From positions 210,001-242,000 of the forward strand of contig JAIZWK010000001.1 of the NCBI GenBank assembly GCA_021498095.1: 32,000 nucleotides of DNA, in the 5' to 3' direction. The notes beneath the pieces are model-generated. The model was not told the origin of the DNA and did not search any database. It saw only the letters and a list, made by a program, of their open reading frames with translations. This document shows, piece after piece, positions 6,111 to 31,362 of the stretch. The first letter of the stretch is position 1; every line of letters begins with the position of its first letter. Made by a program: the position numbers and the translations under genes. This stretch comes from Candidatus Harpocratesius repetitus. Lineage in GTDB: Archaea > Asgardarchaeota > Lokiarchaeia > Sigyniarchaeales > Promethearchaeaceae.

Positions 6111-7541
6111 TTACCACGCATTTTCTAATAAATGACCAATTTCTTCTGCAGTAGGTTTTCTTGGATTCGAATTTACCGAACCACCTTTGGTATTCTCCAC
6201 AATCCAATTAAAATCGTCCTTCAAAATTCCTAAATCACGTAGTCTAATTGGGATCTGAACTTGTGCAAAAAGTTCTTTGATCATTCCTGCCAATCGGCGC
6301 GCATTTTCAAAATCACTGCAACTGGCTTCATATTTTGTAAATAGATCCAATTGATTTATCACTTGTGCAATTTTAACATATTTTATTGGGTTCTTTTCTG
6401 CATTGTATTCAATCACGTAAGGTAGCAATGCTGCACATATCTTTCCATGAGAAATTTGATATTTATAACCAATTGGGTGGGCTAATCCATGAACTAAGCC
6501 CAATCCAACATTAGAAAATGCCACACCTGCAAAAAATGAGCCCAACATCATTTCAGCACGCGCCGCATAATCTTGCCCATTTTCCACTACTCTGCGTAAA
6601 TTCGGTGCGATGAGCATAATTGCTTGCATGGCATAAATGTCGGCAATTGGATGGCTTCTCTTAGAAACATAAGCTTCAATTGCTTGCACTAAAGCATCAG
6701 CTCCACTTGCAGCTGACACTTCTGGAGGACATGATAAGGTTAATTCAGGATCAAGCAGGATATATTTTGAAACAATTTGATTCCCTCTAATACTACGCTT
6801 AAACCCACGTAAAGGATCAATTAAGACAGAATTATTTGTTATCTCAGAACCGGTTCCTGCTGTTGTGGGAATTGCAATAAAAGGAAGTCCAGGAACTTCA
6901 AAGGGTTTTCCATCATGATAATCCTCAACTAAACCTCCATTTGTTGCAATACCTGCAATTGCTTTGGCTACATCCAAAACTGATCCTCCACCTAATCCAA
7001 CAATGTAGTGGGGCTTGTTTTCTAATGCTAATTTTACTCCTTTATTAACCATATCAACTGTTGGTTCACCCTTTCCAATACTATAAACAAAAGTTTCAAT
7101 TGCATTATTTTTACATGAATCAATTATCTGATCAAGGGCTCCATTTTCCTTTACAGATGAATTTCCAACAACAATCATGGTCTTTGGTTGAGAAATTTCT
7201 GCTTTTTTAATATATGGTAACATTGGATCAAGCAATTCAAAAATAGCTTGAGGTACCTCTTTAGAAATTCCCTTACCAAATCGTATTTTAGGTGCTGGAA
7301 AAGAGAACTTAACATCCTTCCATTTAGTATGGACAATTAATGGTTTTCCAATAAATCCCGAAAGTAAATCGATGGGTTTCTCTTCATCAATGAATTCCTT
7401 AGATTTCCCTTTTTCAGAATGATTTCCCTTAGATTGTTTTTCTCCAATAATCTTTTCAGATTCTGGAGAAGAATCTTGATCAGTTGCCCCTTCTTCTTCT
7501 TTTCTTAAAGATTCGGAAGGAGTTTTTTCATCAGAATCCAT
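6111..7541 (-). CDS. Iron-containing alcohol dehydrogenase family protein with an acidic N-terminal extension
   Basis: GLGGGSVLDVAKA, IPTTAGTGSEIT, LDPELT, DALVQAIEAY, HGLAH and SHG motifs. Confidence 0.92.
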   Translation of the reverse strand: MDSDEKTPSESLRKEEEGATDQDSSPESEKIIGEKQSKGNHSEKGKSKEFIDEEKPIDLLSGFIGKPLIVHTKWKDVKFSFPAPKIRFGKGISKEVPQAIFELLDPMLPYIKKAEISQPKTMIVVGNSSVKENGALDQIIDSCKNNAIETFVYSIGKGEPTVDMVNKGVKLALENKPHYIVGLGGGSVLDVAKAIAGIATNGGLVEDYHDGKPFEVPGLPFIAIPTTAGTGSEITNNSVLIDPLRGFKRSIRGNQIVSKYILLDPELTLSCPPEVSAASGADALVQAIEAYVSKRSHPIADIYAMQAIMLIAPNLRRVVENGQDYAARAEMMLGSFFAGVAFSNVGLGLVHGLAHPIGYKYQISHGKICAALLPYVIEYNAEKNPIKYVKIAQVINQLDLFTKYEASCSDFENARRLAGMIKELFAQVQIPIRLRDLGILKDDFNWIVENTKGGSVNSNPRKPTAEEIGHLLENAW

Positions 7542-7794: not shown

Positions 7795-9405
7795 TTACCA
7801 ATAATAAAAGAAATGCTTCTGAACAAGCTTTTTCGTAGGATAAAACACAGTTTGATCAGTTATCTCCTGATGCAATGCTTCTTCAAAAAAATCACCGAAT
7901 TCTTTTAGAAATTCTTGCATCTTTTGACGAATTTTAGACAATTCAAGCTGTGTAAACACTACCATTAACACGTTTTGATATTCTTCAATTAAAATGCTCA
8001 TTTCTTCACGTTTAATAACTTTTAAAGACTTTCGGGAATTTACAATTTCATCTAAAATAGAAGAAACAGTCACTAAAGTCCCACTGAGAAGTTCTTCCTT
8101 TGTTTCAGAGATTGAATTTTCATGTTCTTGGTCTTTCGTACTTGAATTAGGAATTTGGCGTATATTTTGGGAATATATTGGAATCCCAGATTTATATAAT
8201 ATAGAAATACGCTGAATTGCATCCTTCCATTCTAATTCTTCCTTTTTTGGCAATGTCTCCTCAATTTGGCTGGTAGTTATTGTAGCCAGTAAAAAAAGAA
8301 AGAGTAACACGACTGTTAAATAAATCGGGTCTGATAAATATAGAGATTCTAATACAAAACCCAATAGAATACCACCTAACATTCCTATCGCCGAAAAAAT
8401 GTAATATACCATCATATAAGCTCGAATATAGCGCTTGTCAGTAAATTCTAAAAAGATTAAAGAATTGCTGGTTAAAAAGAACGTTGTTCCAACACCTAAA
8501 ATCATGGGAAAAATTATTCCTAATATTGAGTCTCTAATTGAAATTATTAAGGCAAAAAAGGCAAAGGAAAGAACGCCAATTCCAAATAGCATTACCTTCT
8601 TTCGCCCCCAAACATCAAGTAAAATTCCATTTAAAATTGATCCGATTGCAATTACAAAAAAGAAAATCAAATAAAATTGAGGTAAACTCCACTCAAAGCC
8701 TCCATGGATAATTAAATTTATTGCGGCATAAAACGGATTGGTTAAAAAGAAACCCCAAAAGAACGCCATTAAAAGTTTACTCCCAGATTGAGGTTGAACT
8801 GAAAATAATTTTGTTTTAAATGGTTGTTGTTTAGGAAATTCATTATGTCCACGGCTGCTTAAACCCATGGTAATTATTCCTATAATGTTCAAAACAAGTA
8901 AAATGATAAGTATGATTGGTGATTTCAAAAAAATTACTATTCCAAAGACTAAAATAATAAAATTCATTGCCATATATCCCAATCCATTTACACGCCCATT
9001 ATATTTTGGATCAGGAAAAGCAGGAGACAATTGAGTGAACATAACTCCGAAAAAACTGCTTCCAGTTAAACCTATTCCGCCTAAACATATTAAAATCAGC
9101 CAAGAACTATTGGTCAATTGAAGAGCAATTTGAAGGGTTATCTGAAAAATTCCAAACAGTGCAATTGAAATAAAAAACATCAAATAATGTGGTATTTTTT
9201 GAAAAATTGTCAGTGCAAATACTCCACCAATAATACACCCCAAATAGGATATTGCAACGCTCCAAAGGGGAAGTTCACTGTTAATAACTGCCATAAATTC
9301 AAAAATAAAATGACTTCCCCAAAGAATAGTTGCAGCTAGAAAACATGAAATTATCGAAAACCAACCTTTACGGGTGAAAATATCTTTTGGGGGAATTATG
9401 CGCAT
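7795..9405 (-). CDS. MFS transporter fused to a C-terminal longin-like cytoplasmic domain
   Basis: About 12 hydrophobic segments and MFS motif A (GILLDVWGRKK). The ~150-aa soluble tail ISILYKSGIPIY...LLSG...ILDEI...LKVIK...SILIE...RQKMQEFLKEF follows the longin beta-beta-alpha-beta-beta-beta-alpha-alpha pattern. Confidence 0.75.
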   Translation of the reverse strand: MRIIPPKDIFTRKGWFSIISCFLAATILWGSHFIFEFMAVINSELPLWSVAISYLGCIIGGVFALTIFQKIPHYLMFFISIALFGIFQITLQIALQLTNSSWLILICLGGIGLTGSSFFGVMFTQLSPAFPDPKYNGRVNGLGYMAMNFIILVFGIVIFLKSPIILIILLVLNIIGIITMGLSSRGHNEFPKQQPFKTKLFSVQPQSGSKLLMAFFWGFFLTNPFYAAINLIIHGGFEWSLPQFYLIFFFVIAIGSILNGILLDVWGRKKVMLFGIGVLSFAFFALIISIRDSILGIIFPMILGVGTTFFLTSNSLIFLEFTDKRYIRAYMMVYYIFSAIGMLGGILLGFVLESLYLSDPIYLTVVLLFLFLLATITTSQIEETLPKKEELEWKDAIQRISILYKSGIPIYSQNIRQIPNSSTKDQEHENSISETKEELLSGTLVTVSSILDEIVNSRKSLKVIKREEMSILIEEYQNVLMVVFTQLELSKIRQKMQEFLKEFGDFFEEALHQEITDQTVFYPTKKLVQKHFFYYW

Positions 9406-9536: not shown

Positions 9537-10349
9537 ATGCTCACAGAAAATCCAAATGAAAATTCAAAGAGAGAAACTTCAGAAAAAATAAAAAATTGTC
9601 ACAACACTCTTTTAACCAAAGCTGCAAGATGGTTACTTAACGCATCTGAGGCTTCTGCTTTTACCGGAGCAGGCATTTCAGTTGAAAGTGGAATCCCACC
9701 GTTCAGAGGACCAACAGGAATCTGGAGTAAATTTGATCCATCCATTCTGGATATCAATAGGTATTTTAGAGAACCTGAAAATGTATGGCCAGTTATAAAA
9801 AAAATATTTTATGATCACTGGGGAAAAGCAGAACCAAATCAAGCTCATTATAATTTAGCAAAAATGCAAGAAATGGGAATTATTAAAGACATAATCACAC
9901 AAAATATAGATAATCTTCATCAAAAAGCAGGTAGCAAAAATGTTTGGGAATTTCATGGAACCTTAACTAGTTTTACATGCCAAACATGTCACTTTCATAA
10001 AGAATGGAATCAAGAATTGTTATACGACAAACCGCCAATCTGTCCATCCTGTAACTCCATATTGAAACCTGATTTCGTTTTTTTCGGTGAAGGAATCCCT
10101 CCAGTTGCTTTAAAAGAATCATTACGAGTAGCGGAACAAGCGGATATTCTTCTAATTATTGGCACAACTGGAGAAATAATGCCTGCAAGCCAAATTCCAT
10201 TTTTAGCTAAAAAAAATGGGGCAAAAATAATAGAGATTAACATTAATCCTTCTAATTATACAAATCTAATTACAGATGTCTTTCTTCAAGGAAAAGCAAG
10301 CGAAATTATGACAAAACTCGTCGAACTTATGCTAAAATTAAAGCAATAA
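9537..10349 (+). CDS. cobB: NAD-dependent protein deacylase, sirtuin (CobB/Sir2) family
   Basis: GAGISVESGIPPFRG, TQNIDNLH, catalytic HG, Zn ribbon CQTC...CPSC, KPDFVFFGE and GTTGEIMPA motifs. Confidence 0.93.
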   Translation: MLTENPNENSKRETSEKIKNCHNTLLTKAARWLLNASEASAFTGAGISVESGIPPFRGPTGIWSKFDPSILDINRYFREPENVWPVIKKIFYDHWGKAEPNQAHYNLAKMQEMGIIKDIITQNIDNLHQKAGSKNVWEFHGTLTSFTCQTCHFHKEWNQELLYDKPPICPSCNSILKPDFVFFGEGIPPVALKESLRVAEQADILLIIGTTGEIMPASQIPFLAKKNGAKIIEININPSNYTNLITDVFLQGKASEIMTKLVELMLKLKQ

Positions 10350-10393
10350 AGTAAAAGAAAAGAGATGTAGATAAAATATCAAAAAAAAATGGA

Positions 10394-10912
10394 TTAATTC
10401 ATAGCATACTTCTTAGTCCATTCTTTAGCCTTGCTCTCAAATTTCGAATAATTATGCAATGCTTGGTCACCTGCTTCAAAATTTAATGGATCAGCAGGAT
10501 TAAAGAAAGGAGGTTCACAATGAATCTGCCCTTTCAGCGCTTCTATTACATTTGTCAGAGTCTTCGATGGGGTCCAGCCACTAGCTCCAGATTTAACATC
10601 AACCTTTCCGACAAGTTCTGGATTGATTAAATCAAGACAAATGTTGATTTTACCTGGTGGGATAGAACTATCAATGTTCGGATGCCAAATCAATGTGTGG
10701 CAATAAACGTAGCAAGGTTCAAATGGATAGTTATCACCCATCTTAATTTCAAACATAAAACTTCCACCTTCATAAGGAGTATTTGGTAATCCTTTGATTG
10801 TTAACCGTAGATGGTCGTAACTCATACCCCAAGGTTCCAGTTTGATTGTATCATCATTTTTGAAGGCTTCAACGGCTTCTGAATAATCGACTTCTTCTCT
10901 AATTTTAAACAC
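10394..10912 (-). CDS. Ubiquitin-conjugating enzyme E2 (UBC fold), eukaryote-like
   Basis: GLPNTPYEGG, YPFEP, WHPNI, catalytic ICLD (Cys codon 10637-10639), WTP, and NPADPLN...AKEWTKKYA. GTG start. Confidence 0.95.
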   Translation of the reverse strand: MFKIREEVDYSEAVEAFKNDDTIKLEPWGMSYDHLRLTIKGLPNTPYEGGSFMFEIKMGDNYPFEPCYVYCHTLIWHPNIDSSIPPGKINICLDLINPELVGKVDVKSGASGWTPSKTLTNVIEALKGQIHCEPPFFNPADPLNFEAGDQALHNYSKFESKAKEWTKKYAMN

Positions 10913-17625: not shown

Positions 17626-17801
17626 TTATAGAATCTTAAATAAAGAGAATTACAATTTTTTATGCTTTTTTTTCTATAATAATAACTTTTTGAACTTTCC
17701 ATACTATATTCTTTTTATTAATCATTTCTTTGAAAGGATTTAATGAAAATAAATAGGTGTTGGGTTAATTGCGGGACAGTTGTGAAAAAACAATTAATTT
17801 A

Positions 17802-19070
17802 ATGAAGTATCGAGTAATAGTATGCAAATATAATGAATTAGGCTTGAAATCTTCAACATATCAAACCCAACTGCTCAATATATTGATGGATTCAATTAAA
17901 AAGATATGTAAAAGAGAACATCTTACATTACAATCAATAATTAGTTTACCCGGTAGAATTTTATGTTTTTTTCCTTCTCAAGAGATTATTAAAGCATTAT
18001 TAATATTTAAATATATTATTGGAATTCAAGTATTTGCTCCAGCTATCACTTCACCTCGAAAATTGGAGATACTTTCGCAAAAATGTGTAGATTATCTTTC
18101 ATTATTATATCAAATTCATCCCTTTTCGAGTGTTACTTTAGTACTTAAAGGAAATAAAAATCTTATCAACGAATACAACTCATTTTCAACTGAATTGAAA
18201 CAGATTATTGATATTAATTGTCAAAATGCCAAACTACCTATCAATTTTACAGAAAGTTCCCCAGATATTACCTTAAGAGTAGAATTTAGGAAAAAAGGTA
18301 CATATCTGTATCACCTTGAATATCCAACGCATTTTGCAGGATTTCCCATTGAATCAAAAAAAGTATTTCTTTTACCATGGACGAATTCTCCGGATGAATT
18401 TCTCGCAGGTATGTTAATGGTAAGAAGGGGTTCAATTGTTATTCCAATTTCAATCATTCAGACAGATAATTACTCTGATAATAAAAGTAAAAAAAAAGAT
18501 TTAAAAAATGAAAGAAATTTATTAACTGAAATTGCGAAATATTATGCTGATCCTTTACCTTGGATAAAAATATCTCAAAATGAATTAAATAATATCAGTA
18601 ATGACTTTGCTCAATCAAGAAACGAAGTGTGGCTGAAAGTTTTGGAAAAATTGTGCATTCTAAGTATAGAACGCGCCTTTATCCATATGGGAAACCGTAA
18701 GCTTCATTTTAAGGGAATAATAGTGCCGAATTCTTTTGAATCAAGAATATTCAGAAAAGAAAATTTGAAGATCCCAGTTTTCTATCCTTTAATAGGCTTT
18801 TCTTTTGGATTTATTCAAAGAATAATGGAGGAATATGAACATGATCCATGGAATTTTTCATTTCATAGATTTATTTCACAAAAATCTTGGGAATCACCAT
18901 CTTTTCTATTGAGGGAAAATAAAAAATTAATAAATCCACAAAAAAAAGCCGAATTACAGTTTTCTGCTCAAAAATCTAATGTAGAAATAAATGATTCAAT
19001 AATTTTAAAAATTAAATCAAATTTGAGGGTTAATTTCATTATTGAGGAGATATTGGAAAGCTTTAATTGA
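17802..19070 (+). CDS. THUMP-domain ThiI-like protein with a degenerate PP-loop (probable pseudoenzyme)
   Basis: N-terminal VIVCKYNELGLKS (ThiI consensus IVRYGEIGLKG), a THUMP region, GFP...LMVRRG and PVFYPLIG, but SGGxDS is replaced by TNSPDE. ATG at 17802 is in frame with the track ORF starting at 17769. Confidence 0.7.
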   Translation: MKYRVIVCKYNELGLKSSTYQTQLLNILMDSIKKICKREHLTLQSIISLPGRILCFFPSQEIIKALLIFKYIIGIQVFAPAITSPRKLEILSQKCVDYLSLLYQIHPFSSVTLVLKGNKNLINEYNSFSTELKQIIDINCQNAKLPINFTESSPDITLRVEFRKKGTYLYHLEYPTHFAGFPIESKKVFLLPWTNSPDEFLAGMLMVRRGSIVIPISIIQTDNYSDNKSKKKDLKNERNLLTEIAKYYADPLPWIKISQNELNNISNDFAQSRNEVWLKVLEKLCILSIERAFIHMGNRKLHFKGIIVPNSFESRIFRKENLKIPVFYPLIGFSFGFIQRIMEEYEHDPWNFSFHRFISQKSWESPSFLLRENKKLINPQKKAELQFSAQKSNVEINDSIILKIKSNLRVNFIIEEILESFN

Positions 19071-29097: not shown

Positions 29098-29553
29098 TTA
29101 AAGCCATCCTTGGATAGACCAAGTAAATTTTTCAGCCAAAGTCATCCGAATTTCAACTTTATTCGCAAGAGTAAACCCTGTGATAAGAGAATGAGCACGG
29201 TTATCTTTTAATTTTTCATGATTTTTTATGGGTTGATGAATAACATCTAAAGGTTGAACAGAACGAACCTGAAAAACCTCGCTCTGAATAACACCGTAAT
29301 TTGTTGATTCTTTTTTACCACGTTTAAGGGTTTCTTCAGCTGTTGAATAACGATCCCAATCTACAGAAACACCATCCCATTTTGCAAGATATTCTTCTTT
29401 CCAAGATTTTTGAGGTTCATTGAAAACATTTTGAGGTACTTTTTGCATATTGGGGAATTCTGAATCATTTATAACAAAATTCTTGTGGATTCTTCGAAAA
29501 ATAAAATCATCATCTGGAATTATCTCAATTTCCCATTCTTCACAATTATTCAT
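29098..29553 (-). CDS. Putative ADP-ribosyltransferase-fold toxin with an R-S-H pattern (third gene of the cassette)
   Basis: DDDFIFRRIH (R20), GVSVDW (S63), YGV, VIHQP and NRAHSLITG (H121); SD-like GGGGA precedes the ATG. The CDS is well supported, but the function is inferred. Confidence 0.55.
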   Translation of the reverse strand: MNNCEEWEIEIIPDDDFIFRRIHKNFVINDSEFPNMQKVPQNVFNEPQKSWKEEYLAKWDGVSVDWDRYSTAEETLKRGKKESTNYGVIQSEVFQVRSVQPLDVIHQPIKNHEKLKDNRAHSLITGFTLANKVEIRMTLAEKFTWSIQGWL

Positions 29554-29571
29554 CAGTAAATCCCCAAAAAT

Positions 29572-30183
29572 TTAATTAGAATTGTCAAAAACTTTAAAGA
29601 TCCAATTAATAATTGAACTTTCAATAGCACTTTCAGATTCAATTTTTAAAATGCTTTTAAGAAAAGGGCTTTTTCCTACGGCAATAATAGGGTCAGATGA
29701 TGATACATGAATTACCAAAAATATGCTAGAATTTCGCCAAGTAATGTCAATTGTGCCATCTGAAATAGGAAGAAGTGAAGGAATTGGAAGAAAACTTAAT
29801 AAAGGCATTAAATTTTTCTTAATTATTCCATTATAAACATTATTGATAATCTTTTCTGATAACATGAGAATTTCTGATTCAAATGCTGGTGCGCCTTGTT
29901 CATCCCAATTTTTTTTTAGTTGTCTGAGATTTTCAATATTATTCGAAATATGTCGATAAATTTCAATAAGACGATGATTATAGTAATTAATATTTTCTTG
30001 AGAATCAGAAATATCATTTGACTGCTCCCAAGAGGGAAAAAATAGATAATAAGTATAAGGATCAAAATAATAATCAGGACTAGAATCATTATATTGCATA
30101 TCAAACCAATTTATCTTTTTATAGGAAATAAAATTATCTTGATTCTTTCTTAGATAAACATTTTTTTTAAGATCAAGCATCAT
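29572..30183 (-). CDS. Uncharacterised protein with an LxxNWDxxGA...PxxDGxIxxxW domain; putative antitoxin (second gene of the cassette)
   Basis: LRQLKKNWDEQGAPAF and LLPISDGTIDITW; its start overlaps the upstream gene's stop by 11 nt. Confidence 0.6.
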   Translation of the reverse strand: MMLDLKKNVYLRKNQDNFISYKKINWFDMQYNDSSPDYYFDPYTYYLFFPSWEQSNDISDSQENINYYNHRLIEIYRHISNNIENLRQLKKNWDEQGAPAFESEILMLSEKIINNVYNGIIKKNLMPLLSFLPIPSLLPISDGTIDITWRNSSIFLVIHVSSSDPIIAVGKSPFLKSILKIESESAIESSIINWIFKVFDNSN

Positions 30184-30952
30184 ATTTCATCTCAACACGT
30201 AAATTATTAGTTATAAGTGATTCAAATTCATTAATTATATTTGCATGTAATATTTCAAGCATTTTTTCAAATAAATTTGGTTGGATTTTTATCACAAATG
30301 AGTCAAAATCAAGGAAAAATAAATCAAATTGCTGTTTATCAGGTCTGCTATATTGAAATGCATATTGAATTGTTAAAATTGTATTATCTGTACATTTTTT
30401 TCGTATTCGAATTCGATTTTCGACTAATTCTTCGATGGGATATTTTTTTATGTTAAAAATTGGAATAAAAAACCTTTCAAAAGATGAACTGCTAATATTA
30501 TCAATAAATTCCTTTTTATTTATATATCTCAACCCAATTCTCTCAAATCGAGGAATTCGCCATATTTTCTTAAAATTATCTATTAATCTGATTATTTTTG
30601 ATTTAAATCCAATTCTGTTTTGATGATTTTTCCATGAATGGTAATTGGATATTTTTAAAGTGATTTTATTTGAAAAAATACTTACTTCATCTTCATCATC
30701 ATTTGAAAACCGCCAAATTATTTCAGATTCAAGAGGATTAGTTTCAAAACCGTCAGAATCACTTTTTCCTTGAAATAGAAGGATTTGTGAAATGAATTCT
30801 TTATGAGCATATGGATATTGATCTTGGATTCTTTCCTGAAATTGTGCAATTTTATTATTTATATTCAATATCAAAGGATAACGAGCTTCAAAAATAACTT
30901 CATGCAAAATTGATTTTTGATAAACACGATTTGATTCATTGCTCATAATCAT
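30173..30952 (-). CDS. TIGR04255-family protein (first gene of the cassette)
   Basis: YQKSILHEVIFEARYP, FQERIQDQYP, RIGLRYIN, FLDFDSF and LHANIINEFESLIT follow the family pattern as I recall it. The start is more likely ATG 30952 or 30946 than the track's 31042. Confidence 0.75.
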   Translation of the reverse strand: MIMSNESNRVYQKSILHEVIFEARYPLILNINNKIAQFQERIQDQYPYAHKEFISQILLFQGKSDSDGFETNPLESEIIWRFSNDDEDEVSIFSNKITLKISNYHSWKNHQNRIGFKSKIIRLIDNFKKIWRIPRFERIGLRYINKKEFIDNISSSSFERFFIPIFNIKKYPIEELVENRIRIRKKCTDNTILTIQYAFQYSRPDKQQFDLFFLDFDSFVIKIQPNLFEKMLEILHANIINEFESLITNNLRVEMKYDA

Positions 30953-31362
30953 TATCCTTAATAAAATATATAAAGTGTAGGAAGAAAAAAGTTTTGCATT
31001 ATAATTTTTTAAATGTATTAATATATAAAACTTTATTAACATTTAATAGAGTGATAGAAAATTGGAAATCATGCATAGATTACACATTTACTATTATTCT
31101 ATCCAAATTTGAAACATGTAGATCAGAAATTTAGACCTCTTATTATCAAATTCAACAATTTTTTAACTAAAAATGATCAAAAATCGAACCATAATTATAT
31201 TTTTTTTTGCCAATTGATAATAATTCTTGGATAGATTTGATTATTGTAGGAAAAAGAAAGATAGAAATTGTAATTCAGTCAGAAATAAAGAAGTTGATAT
31301 AACTTTATATAATATATTTTTTTAATAATAAAAGAGTTAAAGACTAGTAAAATAAAATAATT

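Follow-up and report, generated by a model that had tools for sequence, protein, structure and literature searches.

Some known membrane proteins of transporter fold signal through a cytoplasmic extension. SLC38A9 has the APC fold, and its tail, which is no longin, binds Rag-Ragulator, a separate roadblock platform. The yeast glucose sensors Snf3 and Rgt2 have the MFS fold, and their tails are not longins either. The protein described here is likewise a membrane protein of transporter fold with a cytoplasmic extension, but no homology to these proteins is claimed, and the comparison with SLC38A9 is an analogy only.

The longin is a fold on which eukaryotes dock Rab switches. Its nearest known representatives are those of TRAPP (Bet5/TRAPPC1 with Trs23/TRAPPC4; 3CUE, 2J3T, 7B6D), Mon1-Ccz1 (5LDD) and CPLANE (7Q3D), where they form soluble heterodimers within larger complexes. 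The present protein shares with them the longin fold (Z 11-12.7), small residues on helix alpha1 and a predicted dimer-plus-Rab geometry, but its longin forms the C-terminal end of a membrane chain with 12 helices, identity to the eukaryotic domains is 8-16%, and no extra GEF subunits were identified. It also belongs with the expanded longin and roadblock proteins of Asgard archaea, whose fusions to other domains, including GTPases and two-component domains, are already published (10.1101/2020.10.19.343400; PMC10933270). Term searches in the running text of these two papers yielded neither an MFS nor a membrane-integral longin fusion, and a literature search that covered subscription journals incompletely turned up no description of an MFS-longin fusion and none of an Asgard transceptor.

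The body of the protein resembles DHA1-type carriers (NorA, LmrP, TIGR00880) in its 12-helix fold, motif A triad and G-x3-G, and the best sequence match in the PDB is NorA (E 1.6e-19). It differs from them in the added longin tail and in having its signature motifs in the second half, a half that is more like the first half of a canonical carrier.

The gene, its distribution and its neighbors

The window, i.e., the whole stretch of 32,000 nucleotides of Candidatus Harpocratesius repetitus, a Loki-type Asgard archaeon, that was analyzed, encodes the 536-amino-acid protein in one uninterrupted ORF, 7795-9405 on the minus strand. The closest named NCBI protein, 93% identical, is annotated "MFS transporter [Ca. 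Harpocratesius sp.]", and all fusion-related NCBI records examined are called either "MFS transporter" or hypothetical protein. The AlphaFold2 model of the full-length protein (53-sequence alignment; mean pLDDT 89.7, pTM 0.87) has 12 membrane helices followed by a compact alpha/beta domain. The main parts are as follows.

7795..9405, minus strand: gene for the MFS-longin fusion protein (intact ORF; 93% identical NCBI protein)
8269..9372, minus strand: 12-helix MFS body, residues 12-379 (AlphaFold2 helices, MFS_1, Foldseek matches to VMAT2/SV2A/GLUT)
8218..8268, minus strand: linker from TM12 to the longin, residues 380-396 (Q-x2-E-T-L-P-x-K-x-E-L-E-W; mean identity 66% vs 29-43% elsewhere)
7807..8217, minus strand: longin domain, residues 397-533 (family profile, AlphaFold2 model, structural matches)

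The single ORF, the 12 modeled helices and the longin-fold tail bear out the preliminary description of an MFS body and a soluble C-terminal domain on one chain. The soluble domain, which had been placed at about 7795-8270, resolves into a longin proper (7807-8217) and a conserved linker ahead of it (8218-8268). That an MFS fold, a longin fold and a conserved motif A triad occur together beside a highly conserved linker, as sequence or model shows, is close to certain.

The preliminary description had also considered that relatives might lack the fusion, but a survey of 268 Asgard genomes, with five candidates scored per genome, shows it to be widespread. The full-length profile matches in 89 genomes at E<=1e-45, and in about 83 a stop-free match runs across both parts; these belong to nine families, three of them outside the class. 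Related sequences occur in the cultured P. syntrophicum MK-D1, in one Thorarchaeota genome and in one Hodarchaeota genome. The orthologue in the cultured Lokiarchaeum ossiferum, NEF87_001272, is 45% identical; no expression record for it was found in two supplement sets, at least one of which was covered partly. The host genome itself has a paralogue (C1:4125608-4127227), MFS-longin genes form tandem pairs in many genomes, and relatives without the tail exist.

In one genome of the same genus (G094, L012:2730-2845) the gene is broken by a stop within a variable loop of the longin, which leaves a partial longin ORF of 102 amino acids. This break, either true or an assembly error, is what one would cite for the view that assembly or gene calling fused two separate genes. 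The end-to-end stop-free matches in some 83 genomes from nine families, closed genomes among them, contradict that view; because the fusion recurs across the survey genomes, an artefact is excluded, to the point where its probability is negligible.

In the region 9537-10912 of the window, a sirtuin lies between the fusion gene and a gene for a ubiquitin-conjugating enzyme (E2); the 93%-identical relative has no sirtuin there, and its E2 gene lies immediately upstream of the fusion. On the other side, at 6111-7541 on the minus strand, is an iron-containing alcohol dehydrogenase extended at its N-terminus by about 105 residues, found directly downstream of the fusion in close relatives. Upstream of one orthologue, at a single locus (L061:1117-6930), runs a cluster on the same strand that looks like one for inositol catabolism (KduI, TPP enzyme, isomerase/epimerase, GFO/IDH, transaldolase). 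The attempt to read a substrate from gene context was given up, as the synteny with the dehydrogenase and a cupin is confined to close relatives and is different in L. ossiferum and MK-D1. Elsewhere in the window are a three-gene cassette (29098-31042, minus strand) that is headed by a TIGR04255 family protein (E 9.7e-27) and looks to be of the toxin-antitoxin type, and a weak ThiI homologue (17769-19070, plus strand; 53.6 vs 264.5 bits for the family cut-off). A promoter and terminator scan was set aside, since its sigma-70 model is unsuited to archaea.

The MFS body and its second-half motifs

The modeled body consists of two six-helix bundles, its residues 13-386 match the MFS row of a structure atlas (TM 0.75), and Pfam MFS_1 scores above its cut-off (E 5.9e-15, 55.5 vs 33.4 bits). 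TIGR00880 (DHA1) misses its cut-off by far (25.9 vs 131 bits). Motif A, a conserved acid and G-x3-G are normally found at TM2-3, TM4 and TM5, respectively (PMC11568325; PMC9650428), and the DHA1 layout agrees on the place of motif A and has motif C on TM5. The fusion protein departs from this layout, having its motifs at TM8-9 and TM11, the latter carrying G-x3-G. The motif A seen at first inspection is thus present, but in the second half of the protein instead of at the usual TM2-3. The residues concerned are these.

8599..8628, minus strand: motif A, residues 260-269 (G260, D264, G267, R268), in the TM8-9 loop; D264, G267 and R268 invariant in 53 homologues
8446..8448, minus strand: E320, end of TM10, by analogy the third residue of the charge-relay triad; invariant in 36 core homologues
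8992..8997, minus strand: G137-R138, where TM5 begins; on grounds of symmetry, probably the partner of motif A at TM8-9; G137 invariant, R138 78%
9298..9321, minus strand: W29-x2-H32-F-x2-E36 on TM1, candidate ligand or proton site; H32 97%, E36 85% in 36 core homologues
8728..8742, minus strand: T222-N223-x2-Y226 on TM7, candidate cavity residues; Y226 92%, T222 69%

A charge-relay triad has been described for AmpG (PMC11568325). Its counterpart, D264/R268/E320, is complete, in the second half only. The first half is strongly diverged, with no Pfam MFS match, no motif A and 29% identity. In 35 of 36 cases the second halves of the family give the higher score with ordinary first halves, and the first halves weakly prefer ordinary second halves (23 of 35, by about 4 bits); in distant MFS-longin proteins a motif-A-like Asp is retained in both halves. 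A circular permutation of the halves was left as suggestive, since decay of the first half accounts for these results equally well. Two more MFS proteins of the host (G000:C1:2242103-2243632 and 2867399-2868889) match the motif-A half of the fusion family with their second half, not their first.

Does the body still work as a transporter? The conserved latch suggests that it cycles, and the polar residues conserved within the membrane, W29, H32 and E36 on TM1, H/S53 on TM2, and T222, N223 and Y226 on TM7, would make up a putative ligand site. Alternatively, the body might bind a ligand without transporting it and signal through some partner other than a small GTPase. The much diverged N-terminal half devoid of motif A fits such a pure receptor, as does what is apparently a proline (P300) at the position of the motif-B arginine, and there is a precedent for other partners in the NPRL2-like longins fused to two-component domains (Liu et al., 10.1101/2020.10.19.343400). 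Yet the core family keeps D264, R268 and E320 without exception, and motif B is missing from some active carriers too, such as SotB (PMC9650428), so we regard a pure receptor as improbable.

The linker is the most conserved segment of the protein (66% identity, followed by the longin at 43%, the second MFS half at 38% and the first half at 29%), and the motif A latch is retained only in the half that adjoins the tail. Perhaps, then, the cytoplasmic latch and the longin are mechanically connected through the linker.

The longin tail and its predicted GTPase interface

Folded alone (115 homologues; pLDDT 84.9), the tail shows the element order of a longin. When it was compared with 48,161 representative chains, the top structural match was Trs23 (3cue_A; Z 12.7, rmsd 2.9, 126 residues aligned), and further matches include the Drosophila TRAPP core (7b6d_C, Z 12.1), CPLANE (12.0), and VAMP7 and Mon1-Ccz1 (11.3). 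Ranks 1-23 of the VIA ranking are all longin-bearing complexes (Z 12.7-10.1); the first roadblock match, at Z 10.1, ends at model residue 124, short of the last helix. This ranking puts the tail nearer the longins than the roadblocks; in Foldseek the matches to both folds are intermixed. The longin-like domain first supposed from strand and helix patterning is a longin by AlphaFold2 model and structure comparison alike.

At the level of sequence, the kinship emerged from alignment-based searches only, the Pfam search with the single tail sequence giving nothing useful. The tail family profile finds Trs23 (E 5e-5) and TRAPPC1 (E 0.019), and 32 of 115 family members match Pfam Sybindin weakly. 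Scores stay below the Pfam cut-offs of Sybindin/TRAPPC4, Fuz_longin_1 and Intu_longin_1 (14.4 vs 23.7 bits for the tail with Intu_longin_1; best E of other members 5.7e-5). The tail is a longin fold outside every curated Pfam longin family. Four of its elements matter for what follows.

8179..8190, minus strand: beta1-beta2 hairpin containing the invariant G407, part of the predicted GTPase interface
8095..8166, minus strand: variable polar loop, residues 414-437, of low model confidence; 24 amino acids here, 9-16 in most homologues
8041..8094, minus strand: helix alpha1 (L439, G442, T446, S449, E453), main predicted GTPase-docking face
7849..7866, minus strand: alpha2-alpha3 loop, residues 514-519, which touches GTPase beta1 in the model

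The loop at 414-437 had been taken for a low-complexity insert. Its complexity is not unusually low, as 20% of random 24-mers from the host proteome show lower entropy; it is polar and variable in length. G407 is conserved in 100% of the family, G442 in 85% and E453 in 86%, and residue 446 is G or A in 87%. The small-residue pattern of alpha1 is common to most longins of the host genome and could serve dimer packing.

A link between transport and small GTPases, proposed earlier from the eukaryotic parallels, fares better by structure prediction than by gene order. Two tails co-folded with a Rab-like GTPase of the host gave ipSAE values of 0.74, 0.71 and 0.74, and the best of three controls, none with another GTPase, gave 0.02. 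The runs agree in at least 91% of contacts, with partner pLDDT of at least 81. The mark attained is reached by 58 of 80 solved pairs and 2 of 110 mismatched pairs, counts that apply only roughly here. In the predicted interface, alpha1 (438-453) of both tails, the G407 hairpin and loop 514-519 face beta1, switch I, the interswitch and switch II of the GTPase. TRAPP-Ypt1 and Mon1-Ccz1-Ypt7 use the same alpha1 face in the same arrangement (PMC5216073; PMC3747258), and mutation of Mon1 G250/T254 or Ccz1 G106/G110 abolishes GEF activity (PMC5216073); to judge from the pattern, G-x3-small in the tail may be equivalent to these residues. Conservation is somewhat higher for residues of the predicted interface than at the remaining non-hydrophobic positions, a weak difference (permutation p 0.04). 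Since similar complexes have already been solved (3CUE, 5LDD, 9LOL), the co-fold pass may reflect memory of them, and we read it as indicating that the tail is compatible with the role of a GTPase platform rather than as proof that the tested pair binds.

The GTPase in question (C1:2851705-2852277, minus strand; co-folded as G000:C1:2851708-2852268) was chosen as the host genome's best BLAST match, at 35% identity, to a Rab that occurs fused to a longin in another record. It was not retained as an orthologue of the fused Rab, the tree giving no supported grouping or partner. It is conserved in relatives and has no C-terminal cysteine; Asgard Rabs lack the C-terminal cysteines that anchor eukaryotic Rabs to the membrane (PMC10933270). 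In two proteins, P0111 (L083:936-1913) and P0156 (L088:8001-8915), a longin from the clade of the MFS tails follows a Rab-like GTPase. Their longins nest within that clade (97% support), beside the MFS tails P0018 and P0026 (98%); P0111 and P0018 come from one metagenome assembly, and their tails are 46% identical. Such fusions are rare, none having been found in 201 sampled genomes, and the argument from them is weaker because the same tail clade also joins TPR and beta-helix surface proteins.

Gene order offers nothing comparable. The nearest small-GTPase gene is about 94 kb away, none is conserved beside homologues, and an operon link was dropped when a GTPase gene appeared at 5 of about 22 homologue loci, near the 16% baseline of random 16-kb windows in the host genome. 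According to Tran et al. (PMC10933270), GTPase-regulator pairs in Asgard archaea are hard to predict from gene order. Support for the proposed link is computational: it comes from the passed co-fold, from the Rabs fused to longins of the tail clade and from the conserved small residues of alpha1, in spite of there being no GTPase gene nearby.

The longin might, on the other hand, be a portable pairing tag with no GTPase role, dimerizing the transporter or linking it to other longin-tailed proteins. The promiscuous fusion of the tail clade, the tandem MFS-longin pairs and the lack of a conserved GTPase neighbor are what one would expect of such a tag, and some longins have non-GTPase roles (PMC10933270). 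Against it stand the co-fold, which passed on the canonical face, the presence of Rab-longin fusions in the tail's own clade and, weakly, the conservation of the interface. We consider a mere pairing tag rather unlikely, and the docking of a Rab-like GTPase remains the preferred reading.

The tail as an exchangeable module

Longin-like matches occur in 46 ORFs of the host genome, about 13 of which have at least two membrane helices. In a FastTree longin tree built on few alignment columns, the clade of the tail comprises 70 rows (97% local support) and also holds tails of 6-7TM, TPR and surface proteins, the last with beta-helices. Longins are found as well on single-pass surface proteins and on CBS proteins. 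One of these, a CBS-pair plus longin-like protein of the host (G000:C1:4285463-4286308, minus strand), has on a similar tail what may be a nucleotide-sensing input. A Hodarchaeota record, P0069, has a short N-terminal domain, ubiquitin-like by eye, joined to a longin of the MFS-tail clade.

The tail can also be replaced. A sister family has the same MFS body with an eight-cysteine RING-like finger at its end, which gives weak matches to zf-C3HC4_3 (E 7.5e-4) and RBBP6 (E 0.01).

L021/L022 (G279, G195), P0038, P0042, P0043, P0046, P0063 and L063-L082: rows with the RING-like finger

The RING-tailed forms are nested among longin-tailed MFS proteins, at least two changes being required on well-supported branches. 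Both tails recur on 6-7TM proteins, many of which are capped by the finger. In one Loki family the finger is a promiscuous C-terminal module, on MFS and 6-7TM proteins, with up to 16 matches per genome; it was not found in the host genome. The swap for a RING-like finger, the recurrence on 6-7TM proteins and the surface and CBS fusions look like an architecture of input plus output, and a membrane scaffold with alternative cytoplasmic modules, shared by receptor-shaped proteins, is the pattern we would expect of sensors with outputs.

The flow of information might also be inside-out: the protein would be a working transporter, and a GTPase or partner longin on its tail would set its activity or its position in the membrane, which would make the protein an effector rather than a sensor. 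The intact motif A triad and the conserved polar residues of the cavity favor a working transporter, tail-less members persist, the co-fold gives no direction, and the neighboring metabolic genes (one relative's gene directly after the inositol-catabolism-like cluster, the dehydrogenase downstream in close relatives) would suit a carrier. But this metabolic synteny is limited to close relatives, the same tails appear on 6-7TM, CBS and single-pass surface proteins that resemble sensors, not carriers, and the exchange of the longin for a RING-like finger is in keeping with an output role. Control from inside is accordingly judged unlikely, slightly more so than the pairing tag.

On the most likely reading, still a tentative one, the fusion protein serves as a longin platform embedded in the membrane, to which a Rab-like GTPase docks and which reacts to the state of its MFS body. 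The tail would probably pair with a second longin, its own or that of a paralogue, to form a surface of two alpha1 helices. As modeled, and by likeness to TRAPP-Ypt1, this surface may well bind a Rab-like GTPase through switch I, the interswitch and switch II, recruiting it with no need of a lipid anchor. Given such binding, it is fairly likely that the rocker switch is moved by a ligand at the TM1/TM7 site and that the linker relays the shift to the docking or nucleotide state of the GTPase, which would make the protein a transceptor. A wider generalization is more speculative and, on present evidence, doubtful: that Asgard archaea possess a family of integral-membrane sensors (MFS, 6-7TM and single-pass) whose paired longin tails, depending on ligand, bind unprenylated Rab-like GTPases at the cell membrane. 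The MFS-longin protein would then be a nutrient transceptor in one chain as well as a GEF/GAP platform, and the sisters with RING tails would pass the same input on to ubiquitin-type signaling.

Asgard genomes encode dozens of Rab-like GTPases and longins, the role of which was described as unknown by Tran et al. (PMC10933270). The structure model yields a link between a membrane transporter and GTPase signaling that is unproven but testable. The proposed pair of fusion protein and GTPase can be tested now, because the closed genomes of the cultured MK-D1 and L. ossiferum contain both the fusion and genes closely matching the candidate GTPase. A longin within a membrane carrier may offer GTPases that lack an anchor a route to the membrane, one that is tied to a signal from outside the cell.
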